The notes: generated by a model from the letters alone, not told the origin. Positions 3,619 to 62,827 are shown, counted from the first letter of the stretch. The stretch: 64,000 nt of DNA from Peptococcaceae bacterium (GCA_022797295.1 JAAWKH010000001.1:186060-250059); one strand, 5' to 3'. A program made the numbers and translations.

Positions 3619-4338
3619 ATGCAGGAAAGATTACAGAAAATTTTGGCGCAGCATAATGTGGCCTCTCGTCGGGCGGCGGAACAGTTGATTTTAGCTGGTC
3701 GAGTTCTGCTAAATGGCCAGGTGGCGCAGTTGGGCGATAAGGCGGACGCAGTTGAGGATGAAATTTTGCTGGATGGCAAGCCGTTGCCGCCTTTGGCTGG
3801 TTTACGCTATTTTTTGCTTTACAAGCCGGCAGGCTATATCACTAGCGCGCACGATGAAAGAGGCCGCCGCACAGTGTTGGATTTGCTGCCTGTAGACGGC
3901 GAGCGTTTATATCCGGTGGGCCGTTTGGATTATGCAACCTCCGGTGTGTTGTTGCTGACAAATGACGGAGAGCTGACTCAGGCCTTGTTGCATCCTAAGG
4001 GAGAGATTACGAAAGTTTACCAATGTGCGGTAAAGGGTGCGCTTACGATAGAAAAATTGCGCCAGCTTGAGCAAGGCGTTTTGCTTGACGATGGTTGGAC
4101 GGCCCCTGCCAAGGCCTGCCGACTGAAAGAAAATGTGCTGGAGTTGGCTATTCATGAGGGGCGTAACCGTCAGGTACGCCGGATGATGGCCGCTTTGGGT
4201 TTGGAGGTTATTTGGCTGAAAAGGGTTAGTTTTGCCGGCTTAACCTTGCAGGGATTGAGGCCTGGCCAGTGGCGAGAGTTAACCGCGCCAGAGTTGGACA
4301 GGCTGCTCCGGCTAAAGGCGTGTGGACAAAATATATAA
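3619..4338 (+). CDS. rluB: rRNA pseudouridine synthase (S4 + RsuA/RluB family)
   Basis: N-terminal S4 domain and VGRLDYATSGVLLLTNDGEL catalytic motif. Confidence 0.8.
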   Translation: MQERLQKILAQHNVASRRAAEQLILAGRVLLNGQVAQLGDKADAVEDEILLDGKPLPPLAGLRYFLLYKPAGYITSAHDERGRRTVLDLLPVDGERLYPVGRLDYATSGVLLLTNDGELTQALLHPKGEITKVYQCAVKGALTIEKLRQLEQGVLLDDGWTAPAKACRLKENVLELAIHEGRNRQVRRMMAALGLEVIWLKRVSFAGLTLQGLRPGQWRELTAPELDRLLRLKACGQNI

Positions 4339-7371: not shown

Positions 7372-7638
7372 TTATTCAGCAGTGTAGGGCAGCAAAGCCA
7401 CGATGCGGCTGCGCTTGATAGCGTCAGTCAGCATACGCTGATGCTTGGCGCAGTTGCCAGAAACACGGCGGGGTAAAATCTTACCACGCTCAGTGATATA
7501 GTTGCGCAGGCGTGCAGTGTCTTTGTAGTCAATATACTGCGCTTTGTCAACGCAGAAGCGGCAAACACGACGACGGCTGCGGCGGCCACGATTGCCACGG
7601 AAAGGACGTCTTTCCTCCCTAGCTTTTTCTTCAGCCAT
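7372..7638 (-). CDS. rpsR: 30S ribosomal protein S18
   Basis: Typical S18 sequence (RRRVCRFC..., YKD...[16 protein letters not shown]). Confidence 0.9.
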
Positions 7639-13734: not shown

Positions 13735-15099
<1,365 letters not shown>

Positions 15100-16113: not shown

Positions 16114-16187
16114 GCGGGTGTAGTTTAATGGCAGAACAAGAGCTTCCCAAGCTTTTAGCGAGGGTTCGATTCCCTTCACCCGCTCCA
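16114..16187 (+). tRNA. tRNA-Gly (anticodon CCC)
   Basis: Cloverleaf folded by eye. Acceptor stem GCGGGTG/CACCCGC, anticodon loop TTCCCAA, T-loop GGTTCGATTCC, 3' CCA encoded. Confidence 0.85.
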
Positions 16188-16507: not shown

Positions 16508-18214
16508 TTATTTGTCAATTTCTGGATACTGTAAGGCGTCAAATCCCTCCTTACCGCTGCGCACCTGAATAACGTTCTGCACGTCATAAACGAAAATTTT
16601 GCCATCGCCGTATTCGCCAGAGTAGAGCACTTGTTTAGCAACTTCAACAATCGCATTTACGGGCACTTTAGAAACGATAACCTCCACCTTAACCTTAGGC
16701 ACAAGCTTAGTTTCCATAGCGATGCCGCGGTAAAACTCTGTGGCTCCTTTCTGCAAACCGCAGCCCATAACCTCAGTGACGGTCATACCTGTAACGCCTA
16801 GGGCTGATAAAGCATTTTTTAGGGCTTCAAAGCGAGTGCGCCGGGTGATGATAACCACCTTACTGATACCGCTGTTGCAGGTTGCTGTTTCTGGAATAGT
16901 TTCCGCAGAATTGGGCAGTTTGACCGGAGCAATGTTGTTGTTCTGTGGTTCTGTATCTTCATAAATATTGTGAGTGACGGACATAAAATCTGCATAGGAG
17001 CTTACCAAACCATGTTCAGTAATATCTAAACCGGCAATTTCTTCGGCTGTGGTAACACGCAGGCCAATAGTTTTTTTCAGTATATTAAAGATGATAAACA
17101 TTGTAACGGCCACCCAGGCGATAACACTGACAACGCCCAAGGTTTGCACTGCTAGAAAATGTATGCCATTGCCATAAAGCAATCCTTCATCTATGGAAAA
17201 CAAACCAAGCAACAATGTGCCGCTAGCGCCGCAAACCCCGTGAACCGCAATGGCGCCAACCGGATCGTCAATTTTCAGCACTTTATCAATAAACTCAACC
17301 GCAAACACCACCAGCACGCCGCAGATAGCTCCAATAAGGGCCGCGCCTAGCGGCGAAACTGCGTCGCAGCCGGCGGTGATACCCACCAAACCGGCTAAAG
17401 AGCCGTTCAAGGTCATCGAAACATCTGGTTTGCCGTAACGTACCCAAGTCAACAGCATAGTAATCAAGGTGGCAGTTGCAGCGGACAGGTTGGTTGTTAC
17501 AAAAATGGAAGCAGCTGATGTGGCGCTTTCCAGAGAGGATAGGGCAGTGGTTGAACAGCCGTTGAAGCCGAACCAGGCAAACCAAAGGATGAATACGCCT
17601 AATGCTCCAAGGGTTAGGCTATGGCCGGGAATGGCATGGCTTTTGCCGTTGCTGTCATATTTGCCAATACGAGGCCCAATGCAGGCAGCTCCAACTAGCG
17701 CGGCTACGCCGCCAACCATATGCACGGCGGTGGAACCGGCAAAATCGTGAAATCCCAGCTGGCTTAACCAACCGCCTCCCCAAATCCAGTGGCCGGAAAC
17801 GGGATAAATGCAAGCGCTGATAAGCAATGAATACAGACAATAGGTGGAGAATTTAGTGCGCTCGGCCATTGCCCCTGATACAATCGTGGCGGCTGTGGCA
17901 CAGAACACTGTTTGAAAGATGATAAAAGCAAATGAGGTGTAGCCGCTTTCAGCGCCATAATCGTTGCGGATTAAAAAATCCGGTGTGCCGATTATTCCGG
18001 CAATATCAGAACCAAACATTAAGCCAAAGCCCAGCAGCCAAAAGATAACACTACCAATCGCAAAATCCATTAAGTTTTTCATAATGATGTTACCGGCATT
18101 TTTGGCTCTGGTAAAACCGGTTTCCACCATTGCAAAGCCGGGCTGCATAAAAAACACCAATGCAGCGCCTAGCAACACCCAAAGAGTATCCAGTCCGATA
18201 ATAATTTCTTCCAT
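16508..18214 (-). CDS. amt: ammonium transporter (Amt) fused in-frame to a C-terminal nitrogen regulatory PII (GlnB/GlnK-like) domain
   Basis: N-terminal Amt transmembrane region (FFMQPGFAMVETG...). C-terminal ~112 aa match PII (GMTVTEVMGCGLQKG..., GDGKIFVYDV...). ATG at 18214 has GGAG 9 nt upstream. The ORF is continuous. Confidence 0.8.
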   Translation of the reverse strand: MEEIIIGLDTLWVLLGAALVFFMQPGFAMVETGFTRAKNAGNIIMKNLMDFAIGSVIFWLLGFGLMFGSDIAGIIGTPDFLIRNDYGAESGYTSFAFIIFQTVFCATAATIVSGAMAERTKFSTYCLYSLLISACIYPVSGHWIWGGGWLSQLGFHDFAGSTAVHMVGGVAALVGAACIGPRIGKYDSNGKSHAIPGHSLTLGALGVFILWFAWFGFNGCSTTALSSLESATSAASIFVTTNLSAATATLITMLLTWVRYGKPDVSMTLNGSLAGLVGITAGCDAVSPLGAALIGAICGVLVVFAVEFIDKVLKIDDPVGAIAVHGVCGASGTLLLGLFSIDEGLLYGNGIHFLAVQTLGVVSVIAWVAVTMFIIFNILKKTIGLRVTTAEEIAGLDITEHGLVSSYADFMSVTHNIYEDTEPQNNNIAPVKLPNSAETIPETATCNSGISKVVIITRRTRFEALKNALSALGVTGMTVTEVMGCGLQKGATEFYRGIAMETKLVPKVKVEVIVSKVPVNAIVEVAKQVLYSGEYGDGKIFVYDVQNVIQVRSGKEGFDALQYPEIDK

Positions 18215-18255
18215 TGTAAAATCACTCCAATTTAGTATAGTAAAAAAATTTATAT

Positions 18256-18301
18256 AAAAAAGACGTGCTTTGCGAGGAGAAACCTCACTTGGCACGTCTT
18301 T
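18256..18301 (-). terminator. intergenic hairpin/terminator between glnN and amt
   Basis: Minus strand AAAGACGUGCCAAGUGAGG-UUUC-UCCUCGCAAAGCACGUCUUUUUU. Confidence 0.55.
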
Positions 18302-18321
18302 GTGTCGAATTGTAAAAAAAT

Positions 18322-20409
18322 TTAATAGAACAAAAGCTGACTATAGGTGGGGAAAGGCCAGTATTTAGCGGCGCACAGACCCTCCAGCTTATCAGCAACA
18401 GCTCGCAGCTCATTCATTTTTGGCAAAACAGTGTCGTGATAGTACATTGCTTTAGCCTCTGAGCTTGGTAAATCGCTGTTGTTCAGCAAACTCTGCAAGT
18501 CGGTAATATTTTGAGATAGGTTATCAGTGCATTCGGAAATTTGAGTTAATAATTTTTCCTCAGCAACATAACCAACGCCAGCAATTTGTTTTTTAGCCAG
18601 CAGGCAATCGGCTAATTCGTGTGAATAGGTGAGAACAGCCGGTAAAATTTCGGTTTGAGCCATCTCTAGCATAGTCAAAGCTTCAATATGCAAAACCTTG
18701 TGGTACTCATCCATAATACTTTCTGCACGCGCTTGCATTTCCTTGCGGCTGTAAATACCTTGACGAGCAAACATAGCCACGTTTTTGGTTTCCATGTAGT
18801 GTGGCAAAGCCTCAGGTGTGGATTTTAGATTTAGCAAGCCGCGCTTTTCAGCTTCATCAACCCATTCTGGTGAGTAATTGTTGCCGTTGAAGATAATACG
18901 TTTGTGAGCGAGCAGCTGTTTTTTTAGGAATTTATTAAGGGCTTCGTCAAATTCAGCCGGGTCAACAGTTTCTAACTCATCAGCAAATACGCACAAGGTG
19001 TCGGCCACAATGGCATTCAAGATGATATTTGGGCAAGCCAGCGAGAAGCCGGAGCCTAACATTCTAAATTCAAATTTGTTGCCGGTGAAAGCAAAGGGGG
19101 AAGTGCGGTTGCGGTCGGTGCTGTCCTTGGGCAGTTTGGGCATAGCGCGCACTCCAAAATCCAGATAATCATTGCCCAGCTCCTCATAGGTTTTGTCGTT
19201 GGCCAAAGATTCAATAACTGCTTCCAGTTCATCACCGATAAAAACTGAAACAATGGCCGGCGGGGCTTCATTGGCGCCTAAACGGTGGTCGTTGCCAGCG
19301 CTGGCAACAGAAATACGCATCAAATCCTGATAATCATCCACTGCTTTGATGATAGCAGTTAGGTACGTTAGGAACTGCATGTTTTCGCGTGGTGTTTTGC
19401 CAGGCTCCAGTAGATTTTCACCCAAATCAGTAGCTATAGACCAGTTGTTATGTTTGCCTGAACCATTTACACCTTCAAAAGGTTTTTCGTGAAGCAGACA
19501 GGTCAGGCCGTGTTTGGCAGCCACCTTTTTCATCATTTCCATCACCAGCTGATTGTTATCTGTGGCGTTGTTGGTGGTGGAGTAAATGGTTGCCAACTCA
19601 TGTTGGGCAGGAGCCACCTCATTATGCCGAGTTTTGGCTAAAATGCCAAGCTTCCAAAGCTCTTCGTCCAAGTCCTGCATAAAATTGATAACGCGAGGCC
19701 GGATAGCGCCGAAATAATGGTCTTCCAGCTCTTGCCCTTTGGGAGGCATTGCGCCAAAGAGGGTGCGGCCGGTGAAGCGCAGATCCGCCCTTTGTTTAAA
19801 CATTTCCGCATCAATTAGGAAATATTCCTGCTCCGGCCCAACCGTGGTGCTGACGTGGGTGGCTTCAGTGTTGCCAAACAGGCGCAAAATGCGCAGGGCT
19901 TGTCTGTTGATAGCTTCCATTGAACGCAGCAGAGGAATTTTTTTATCCAGCACCTCGCCGCCATATGAGCAGAATGTGGTGGGGATACACAGGGTGTTAT
20001 CCTTGATGAAAGCGTAAGATGTTGGGTCCCAGGCGGTGTAACCGCGCGCCTCAAAGGTGGAGCGCAAACCGCCGGATGGGAATGAGGAGGCGTCTGGCTC
20101 GCCCTGGATTAAGTTGCGGCCGGAAAACTCCATAATCACGTTGCCACCTTCAGTGGGCTCAATAAAGCTATCGTGTTTTTCTGCGGTGAAGCCGGTTAAA
20201 GGCTGGAACCAATGGGTGTAGTGGGTTACTCCTTTCTGGATCGCCCAGTCCTTCATGGCCACCGCAACGGATTCTGCCAGGGAAGGGTCAAGTGGGTTGC
20301 CGGATTGAATGGTTTTTTTCAAAGCTTTGTAAACAGCTTTGGGCAAGCGTTCCTTCATTACGTTTTCATTAAAGACATTGCTGCCAAACAACTCAGGAAC
20401 ATTAGACAT
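18322..20409 (-). CDS. glnN: glutamine synthetase type III
   Basis: ~700-aa GS with type III N-terminal region. ATG at 20409 preceded by GGAGGTG. Confidence 0.85.
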
Positions 20410-20446
20410 AAAATGCACCTCCAAAATTTCTTCCAATCTTTTTATT

Positions 20447-20477
20447 TGTTAACGAATGTTAACGAAAATTGTAAACA
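20447..20477 (-). promoter_or_regulatory. tandem TGTTAACGAA direct repeats (plus a third TGTAAAC) in the glnN 5' leader; candidate operator
   Basis: TGTTAACGAA at 20447-20456 and again at 20457-20466, then AATTGTAAACA. TGTNA half-sites at helical phasing. Confidence 0.4.
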
Positions 20478-20486
20478 GTTTTAATG

Positions 20487-20521
20487 AAAAAAAGCGCCGC
20501 AGGTAATATCCCCGCAGCGCC
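20487..20521 (-). terminator. intrinsic terminator-like hairpin located between the glnN promoter and the glnN start codon
   Basis: Minus strand GCGCUGCGGG-GAUAUUA-CCUGCGGCGC followed by UUUUUUU. Confidence 0.65.
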
Positions 20522-20539
20522 TTTGCTGAATACTCTAAT

Positions 20540-20568
20540 ATTATATGCCCTGCGCGTTTATTTGTCAA
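20540..20568 (-). promoter_or_regulatory. consensus sigma-A promoter TTGACA-17-TATAAT reading toward glnN
   Basis: Minus-strand -35 at 20563-20568 and -10 at 20540-20545, exact consensus hexamers with a 17-nt spacer. Confidence 0.7.
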
Positions 20569-20636
20569 TAGGGTAAATGCAAATATTTTTAATTTTTTTG
20601 TGCAAGTTACAAGCCTTTAGATGAAGCAAGATAAAC

Positions 20637-23273: not shown

Positions 23274-23302
23274 ATTTTAATTTGATATTGCATTGATGTC
23301 AA
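23274..23302 (-). promoter_or_regulatory. sigma-A promoter (TTGACA-17-TAAAAT) of the ABC transporter operon
   Basis: Minus-strand -35 at 23297-23302 and -10 at 23274-23279. Confidence 0.5.
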
Positions 23303-23477
23303 GAGAGAAAGCATAAATTAATAAAGAACTTTGTATAATAAATACTATTGAGATTGGATTGTATTTTTTTTGTTCAAGGTATGGTAATTTAAATTTAGCT
23401 TTGTTATAATTAATAAAACAGGTTGCTAGCAGATTGATCTCAATAAGTTTTCATTATTTAAGGGGAGGAATATTCTT

Positions 23478-62572: not shown

Positions 62573-62827
62573 TGATATTTTCAAATATTGGTGCTATAAT
62601 GTTAGCAATAGCGGAATATAATATACTTGCCCGACAGTGTGCGAAGAGATGCTGATAAGTTTTGAGCCAACACTCAAAATATGGGATTCTTATATTTGTC
62701 TGTGGACTTAATGCCTCCATCGAGTGGACTAAGGAAGCAGCTTGCGGAAGCCCACCTGCATATGCAGGTTCAAAACATCGGCGTTGGACCGGCATTGTGG
62801 GGCATTTTTTTATTAGGAGGGGATTTT
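62573..62827 (+). promoter_or_regulatory. sigma-A promoter (TTGATA-16-TGcTATAAT) plus ~220-nt structured leader upstream of pyrF
   Basis: -35 at 62573-62578 and -10 at 62595-62600. The leader contains the palindrome CCTGCATATGCAGG (62755-62768) and a T7 run (62805-62811) directly before RBS AGGAGGGG. Confidence 0.5.

Follow-up and report, generated by a model that had tools for sequence, protein, structure and literature searches.

We found that glnN, a type III glutamine synthetase (GS) gene in the window (the whole 64-kb stretch of DNA analysed here), is likely subject to ANTAR-type antitermination at a transcription attenuator, comparable to that by NitR and GnfR, and that a second copy of the attenuator likely controls the following gene, whose product joins an ammonium transporter to a PII domain (Amt-PII). 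Five lines of evidence were obtained in this analysis: the anatomy of the leader, its conservation and covariation, the mutual exclusivity of a small hairpin and the terminator, the nitrogen-gene regulon, and the co-location of ANTAR genes in related genomes. From these we infer that the binding protein in the window's genome is an ANTAR protein and that a single hexaloop would be enough for antitermination. By analogy with NitR and GnfR, the response would be switched on under nitrogen limitation.

The elements between the glnN promoter and the gene are the following:

20540..20568, minus strand: sigma-A type consensus promoter, 12/12 match, with the -35 box TTGACA at 20568-20563, a 17-nt spacer and the -10 box TATAAT at 20545-20540.
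20515..20528, minus strand: putative antiterminator mini-hairpin, stem C20528-C20525 / G20518-G20515, hexaloop AAAGGC at 20524-20519 with A1 and G4.
20487..20524, minus strand: intrinsic terminator, 5' arm AAAGGCGCUGCGGG at 20524-20511, loop at 20510-20504, 3' arm CCUGCGGCGCUUUU at 20503-20490, U7 at 20493-20487.
20448..20463, minus strand: post-terminator hairpin GUUAAC-AUUC-GUUAAC, the same sequence as the tandem TGTTAACGAA repeats at 20447-20466.
20416..20422, minus strand: ribosome-binding site (RBS) GGAGGTG, 6 nt before the glnN ATG, conserved in the related loci L001-L008.
18322..20409, minus strand: glnN, type III glutamine synthetase, 695 aa (Pfam GSIII_N 1.1e-81, Gln-synt_C, Gln-synt_C-ter), the first gene under the proposed control.

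Read along the minus strand, the promoter is followed by ATTAGAGTATT, CAGC AAAGGC GCTG (20528-20515), CGGG-GATATTA-CCTGCGGCGC and TTTTTTT (to 20487), after which comes an A/T-rich leader of ~65 nt that holds TTCGTTAACA twice. The promoter is the sole perfect TTGACA-17-TATAAT match across the 2 kb scanned, and its spacing places the predicted start near A20534/G20533, about 10 nt ahead of the terminator. The terminator stem-loop (20524-20490) comprises 14 pairs, including an A/U extension, and folds at -24.0 kcal/mol (z = -5.6), with 0 of 200 shuffles folding as well. An earlier note on this DNA had described the exact promoter, the stem-loop and U7 tract right behind it, the two perfect tandem 10-bp repeats, the RBS and the glnN ATG at 20409, and all of these proved to be present.

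The terminator 5' arm consists of the hexaloop and the 3' arm of the mini-hairpin, and the two structures are mutually exclusive. CAGC-AAAGGC-GCUG is the minimum free energy structure of the nascent 24-mer (-4.2 kcal/mol); its energy alone is not separable from that of shuffles (z -0.4), and its support is comparative. Since the mini-hairpin is weak (-4.2 vs -24.0 kcal/mol), termination would be the default, and the mini-hairpin would need a stabilising factor.

For the comparison we used 80 loci from a GlnN scan of species-representative genomes, mostly Clostridia MAGs, nine of which share 78-95% GlnN identity with the window and the rest 58-65%. L001-L008 share the promoter, the leader GTAWTCAGCAAMGG and the terminator, but their sequences diverge between terminator and RBS. 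In close relatives the terminator 5' arm GGCGCUG shows no change, whereas substitutions in the 3' arm keep the pairing via G-U. This asymmetry indicates that the 5' arm is under a second constraint, and the alternative mini-hairpin would be that constraint. Since the terminator loop and flanks are not conserved, there is no pseudoknot partner.

The conserved core of the mini-hairpin is a stem of 4-5 bp closing the hexaloop AANGRY or, more narrowly, AANGGC. We aligned 34 distinct sequences: all of them have loop G4 and the closing C-G pair, and 32 have A1. In this alignment, whose fixed register is anchored on the loop motif and biases the pairing counts upward somewhat, 133 of the 136 cells of the four-pair core stem are paired and nine double changes fall over three pairs. 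The covariation score exceeded 500 of 500 shuffles and every slid control. Compensatory stem variants include CAAC/GUUG, UGGC/GCCA, AAAGC/GCUUU, CGGC/GUCG, GAAC/GUUC and ACAC/GUGU; the last two come from independent sites found later and point the same way as the anchored alignment.

At E <= 0.01, a covariance model of leader plus terminator had matches immediately ahead of glnN in over 30 loci, all sharing one layout in which TTGACA-17-TAnnnT is followed, after a few nt, by the element. Because this arrangement recurs in dozens of related loci, the juxtaposition of promoter and terminator is beyond chance. A strict scanner returned 54 sites in 39 of the 80 loci, and by eye the element is also recognisable in some 16 loci that the strict filter rejects, Ruminiclostridium among them. 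Cultured carriers include Papillibacter cinnamivorans DSM 12816 (L020) and Ruminiclostridium papyrosolvens (L044). In 37 of 44 instances the distance from TTGACA-17-TAnnnT down to the mini-hairpin is 8-12 nt, which would place the beginning of the hairpin about 2-6 nt into the transcript. The promoter spacer varies in sequence among related loci, as expected of a promoter and not of an RNA structure.

Such a short distance from start to terminator is reminiscent of the Bacillus subtilis pyrG leader, where the start site lies very near the terminator. One might thus suppose that a nucleotide-sensitive reiterative start adds bases that pair with the terminator 5' arm, or else that the leader is a T-box or leader-peptide attenuator. 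We rejected all three from the anatomy of the leader and hold them to be extremely improbable. The start region is variable among relatives (AGAGUA, AAAGUA, CAGGGUA, AACAUA) and lacks a homopolymer run, and neither a T-box (~200 nt) nor a leader peptide would fit. The search for a T-box that the earlier note had advised gave no Rfam match in the leader. With Rfam 15, nothing in the leader reached the gathering threshold, the matches at E <= 10 covered only the terminator part of unrelated families, and neither site in the window matched any family.

A consensus promoter next to a strong terminator would by default also give an abundant short RNA. The unit might accordingly exist for a stand-alone RNA of ~45-50 nt, or as a fixed leaky terminator that sets a low level of glnN. 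We consider this quite unlikely: conservation sits on the alternative hairpin and its loop rather than on the terminator 3' arm or loop, and the device recurs without a promoter inside operons, as in the glnN-amt spacer, and before several nitrogen genes, which fits a regulon.

The copy in the glnN-amt spacer and the gene behind it are laid out as follows:

18254..18304, minus strand: second attenuator, with mini-hairpin CAC-AAAGAC-GUG at 18304-18293 and U6 at 18261-18256.
18301-18292 and 18268-18259, minus strand: the two arms of the second terminator, AAAGACGUGC and GCACGUCUUU, enclosing a 23-nt loop.
16508..18214, minus strand: ammonium transporter fused to a PII domain, 568 aa from ATG 18214 (Pfam Ammonium_transp 2e-125, P-II 7e-23), the second gene under the proposed control.

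This second terminator folds at -24.3 kcal/mol (z -6.5), and L001-L004 conserve the site ahead of Amt-PII, as acacAAAGACgtgt. With its 23-nt terminator loop, the window site had escaped the covariance model. With a design-specific scanner requiring a hexaloop, a stem of at least 3 bp, downstream re-pairing of the loop and 3' arm, and a U-tract, we obtained exactly two sites in the 64 kb, those before glnN and amt-PII, against 0.07 expected from shuffles. The amt-PII gene is called at 568 aa in the MAG carrying the window; a longer GTG-start ORF would overlap the second attenuator. Convergent with amt-PII lies a glutamate dehydrogenase ORF (13741-15099, plus strand), and this adjacency marks the region as a nitrogen-assimilation cluster. 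A 441-aa ORF without Pfam match (13762-15087, minus strand) runs antisense over nearly the whole glutamate dehydrogenase gene. The Rfam scan of the window also returned a 6S RNA gene (62626-62807, plus strand, 87 bits) and a tRNA gene (16114-16184, plus strand).

Across the related loci, sites precede glnN, amt-PII, asnA, pdxS-pdxT, GOGAT-like genes and ANTAR regulator operons, which together would make up a coherent regulon of nitrogen assimilation genes. In L031, two tandem hexaloop/terminator attenuators stand between one promoter and glnN (3794-3898, plus strand), and a third precedes pdxS-pdxT (2276-2331). A Treponema MAG from yak rumen (L041) has an attenuator before glnN (3919-3988) and another before an Amt-PII fusion (7390-7439), which suggests either that the genes were transferred horizontally along with their leaders or that the binning is at fault.

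The three genes upstream of glnN encode an amino-acid ABC transporter (Pfam). This operon has its own TTGACA-17-TAAAAT promoter (23298-23303 region, minus strand) upstream of the binding-protein gene, without a hexaloop/terminator leader. The earlier note had weighed two readings of the glnN leader, namely a promoter-proximal attenuator for the GS/Amt-PII operon, or a hairpin that terminates the ABC operon, with glnN under the control of the repeats and an undetected promoter. In the fuller form of the second reading considered here, that promoter lies downstream of the hairpin and a GlnR/TnrA-like DNA-binding protein acts at the TGTTAACGAA repeats. It is true that the repeats are exact and that the ABC operon has no other terminator before the glnN promoter. 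In the window its transcripts therefore probably stop at the glnN attenuator or run past it, and in L001-L004 too the hairpin probably stops the transcripts of this operon. As an account of the main function, however, the second reading is very improbable and appears largely refuted by the comparison of loci. In L005-L008 the upstream genes differ from the ABC transporter and the promoter-leader-terminator unit is nevertheless kept, so the hairpin is not merely the terminator of that operon; hairpin and promoter are likewise kept without an upstream ABC operon in L022, L024 and many other loci. In addition, our scan of the window showed no promoter-like site between the terminator and the glnN ATG, and in L022 and L024 the U-tract lies only ~20 nt from the ATG, a gap into which no second promoter fits, so that transcripts must cross the terminator. 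The attenuator reading of the earlier note is thus the one that held.

The repeats themselves are unlikely to be an operator. On the plus-strand reading the two TGTTAACGAA copies occupy 20447-20456 and 20457-20466, and since GTTAAC is self-complementary they form an RNA hairpin. The tandem is the sole perfect period-10 repeat in the window, and 27% of shuffled windows have at least one perfect repeat of period 9-11; taken alone, the tandem 10-mer is not beyond chance. It is absent from all relatives compared, including L004 (95% GlnN identity), and the window holds no further copies of TGTTAACGAA or of the leader 15-mer beyond chance. At the equivalent position L004 has a hairpin of other sequence, UUUAGC-UUUC-GCUAAA, and no post-terminator hairpin was found in L002, L005, L007, L008, L022 or L024. 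This hairpin is therefore probably outside the conserved switch, a lineage-specific feature whose role is probably minor, and not an operator. The earlier note had likened the phasing of TGTNA half-sites in the leader to GlnR/TnrA sites, while conceding that no site fits TGTNA-N7-TNACA exactly. The concession was correct, as there is no such site in 20437-20580 even at one mismatch or fewer; the likeness itself found no support, given that no box is present, that the count over the window is at chance (26 vs 24.5 expected) and that the repeats are unconserved.

The attenuator reading gains from a comparison with known ANTAR systems, to which the earlier note had rightly pointed by proposing a comparison with ANTAR models, although it had not seen the small hexaloop hairpin that would be the regulatory core. 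In Geobacter sulfurreducens, CAGGCAANGGCGCC is found upstream of and overlapping intrinsic terminators in the nifH, glnK and amtB leaders, with one conserved site per leader that is not described as a hexaloop hairpin, and the REC-ANTAR protein GnfR binds an RNA fragment with CAGGCAANGGCGCC but not a mutated version (Ueki & Lovley 2010, PMC2995071). The window's CAGCAAAGGCGCUG shares with this site the AANGGC loop and the closing pair, the stem variants keep the pairing, and L023 carries the CAGGCAANGGCGCC consensus exactly. The sites described here therefore resemble the GnfR type in their CAGGCAANGGCGCC-like sequence, their overlap with a terminator and their position in leaders of nitrogen genes. 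They differ in that the Geobacter promoters are sigma-54 dependent, whereas here a sigma-A consensus lies directly upstream, and in that GnfR is activated through phosphorylation by GnfK, whereas the ANTAR proteins of the related loci have Asn at the position of the phospho-acceptor Asp and do not fit the picture of a phosphorylatable regulator with a partner kinase.

According to summaries in two papers (PMC6316151, PMC4676874), NitR of Clostridium saccharobutylicum is encoded directly downstream of a GS-I gene (glnA-nitR) and induces GS/GOGAT (gltAB) under nitrogen limitation, and in C. thermocellum a homologous REC-ANTAR gene adjoins a GS gene (Clo1313_2030/2031). We observed a comparable recurrent operon, in which a GS-I-like gene (399-442 aa) is followed by a pseudo-receiver ANTAR gene (L006:1809-3732, minus strand; L023, L025, L035, L039, L085, L089, L094), often with GOGAT: split GOGAT genes stand ahead of it in some cases, and pyrG follows in others. 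Unlike in the NitR system, control here would fall on a type III GS gene (glnN) with Amt-PII in an uncultured gut lineage, and no regulator was found near the window.

The canonical ANTAR target has short stems, a hexaloop with A1 and G4, and its P2 hairpin at the 5' base of a terminator (Ramesh 2012, PMC3369931). The window loops AAAGGC and AAAGAC both have A1 and G4, their stems have at least 3 bp with pairing conserved beyond the closing pair, the hairpin overlaps the terminator 5' arm at both sites, and the target genes are likewise tied to nitrogen metabolism. In the canonical eut (EutV), nasF (NasR) and amiE (AmiR) targets, however, a second hexaloop hairpin, P1, lies 5-12 nt upstream of P2, and its deletion abolishes EutV-dependent induction (PMC3369931). 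Here only ~2-6 nt separate the predicted start from the hairpin, and we found no P1 upstream, in the promoter region or in the terminator loops, nor at internal sites, which are free of the promoter constraint. On the other hand, a single hexaloop is what the ANTAR dimer touches in crystal structures, and EutV binds either P1 or P2 by itself as well as the pair (PMC8934654).

Clustering of ORFs over the 80 loci exposed genes with an ANTAR domain of the RAKxLLM type, which adjoin glnN in 11 motif-bearing loci. Seven encode stand-alone proteins of ~195 aa with a degenerate receiver (Pfam PF03861, E ~1e-14), located 1.5-2.5 kb from glnN (L006, L022, L023, L024, L025, L035, L039), whose closest solved structures are Rv1626, AmiR and NasR. 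In the other four (L052, L055, L063, L070) the domain is fused to PyrG, the ANTAR match lying at the 3' end of the CTP synthase ORF. The fusion was confirmed by Pfam on L052, where the CTP synthase with a C-terminal ANTAR (L052:1555-3303, minus strand; aa 529-575, E 1.4e-14) is divergent from an attenuator-bearing glnN. It appears restricted to a narrow Lachnospiraceae-like lineage, judging from matches at 77% identity or above, and we found no published description of it. The ANTAR proteins of the related loci also have SS/SA in place of the acidic pair, their Pfam Response_reg match does not reach the cut-off, and their genes have no kinase gene as a neighbour. With a degenerate receiver encoded beside a possible sensor gene, they recall AmiC-AmiR and NasS-NasT; the putative partner here, by contrast, is GS-I-like (or the fused CTP synthase) and not a periplasmic-binding-protein-like sensor. 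Some regulator operons are preceded by their own gaacAAAGGCgttc attenuator, namely those of L025 (GS-I-like then ANTAR) and of L022 and L024 (purA then ANTAR), which suggests autoregulation.

No ANTAR gene was detected in the 64-kb window (Pfam on 22 window ORFs; tblastn) or within ~10 kb on either side of it in the MAGs GCA_948752095.1 and GCA_948591185.1 (~84 kb in all). The ANTAR homologues P0012, P0014 and P0036 belong to other assemblies. L006 bears an ANTAR gene on its glnN contig, L005 and L007 presumably do likewise, and in the window's genome we expect such a gene elsewhere.

This lack of an ANTAR gene around the site, together with the missing second hairpin of the canonical target, would be compatible with a hexaloop/terminator switch worked by another factor, be it a different RNA-binding protein, a small RNA or a small-molecule ligand in the manner of a mini-riboswitch. 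We regard this as unlikely. The loop consensus AANGGC is that of the experimentally bound GnfR site, and both the 11 loci with adjoining ANTAR genes and the motif-preceded regulator operons tie the element to ANTAR proteins. Moreover, a hairpin of 14-16 nt is below the size of known metabolite aptamers, and neither an Rfam match nor a pseudoknot partner accompanies it.

For the ANTAR attenuator that we favour, we propose the following course of events. The consensus promoter, which is probably constitutive, would initiate transcription near 20534/20533, and nucleotides ~+6 to +20 would be able to form the weak 4-bp hairpin with its hexaloop AAAGGC. Without a factor, the far stabler terminator (-24 kcal/mol, U7) would capture the hairpin sequence and RNA polymerase would halt after about 45-50 nt. 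Under nitrogen limitation, a NitR/GnfR/AmiR-like RNA-binding protein with an ANTAR domain would bind the hexaloop and the closing pair and keep GCUG in the mini-hairpin, so that the terminator could not nucleate and the polymerase would enter glnN. The same decision would be repeated at 18304-18254 ahead of amt-PII.

The principle is already known, since ANTAR RNAs before GS and Amt genes of Clostridia were predicted in 2012, and ANTAR antitermination of nitrogen genes is established. The departure from the textbook would lie in the single hexaloop, its 5'-terminal placement and the pseudo-receiver regulators. Published genome-wide searches for ANTAR targets used a dual-hairpin model, and the authors of the structural study, which brought the minimal binding unit down to one hexaloop (PMC8934654), asked for a search for natural single-hexaloop sites. 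The glnN locus, with over 50 related sites, resembles natural single-hexaloop sites that act in antitermination. More tentatively, one 5'-terminal hexaloop hairpin without P1 may suffice for an ANTAR nitrogen regulon in many Clostridia, and the pseudo-receiver regulators may be set by a glutamine-handling partner, GS-I-like or a fused CTP synthase, instead of by phosphorylation; we offer this as a possibility that falls somewhat short of even odds.

The glnN locus and the related sites suggest that some systems can do without P1. A search model of a single hexaloop plus terminator would recover nitrogen regulons in abundant uncultured gut Clostridia, which dual-hairpin models may miss. The leader of ~50 nt would also provide a very small natural system for the kinetic race between antiterminator and terminator folding. 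Lastly, the GS-I-like/ANTAR neighbourhoods and the PyrG-ANTAR fusion offer a testable idea of how glutamine may be sensed.
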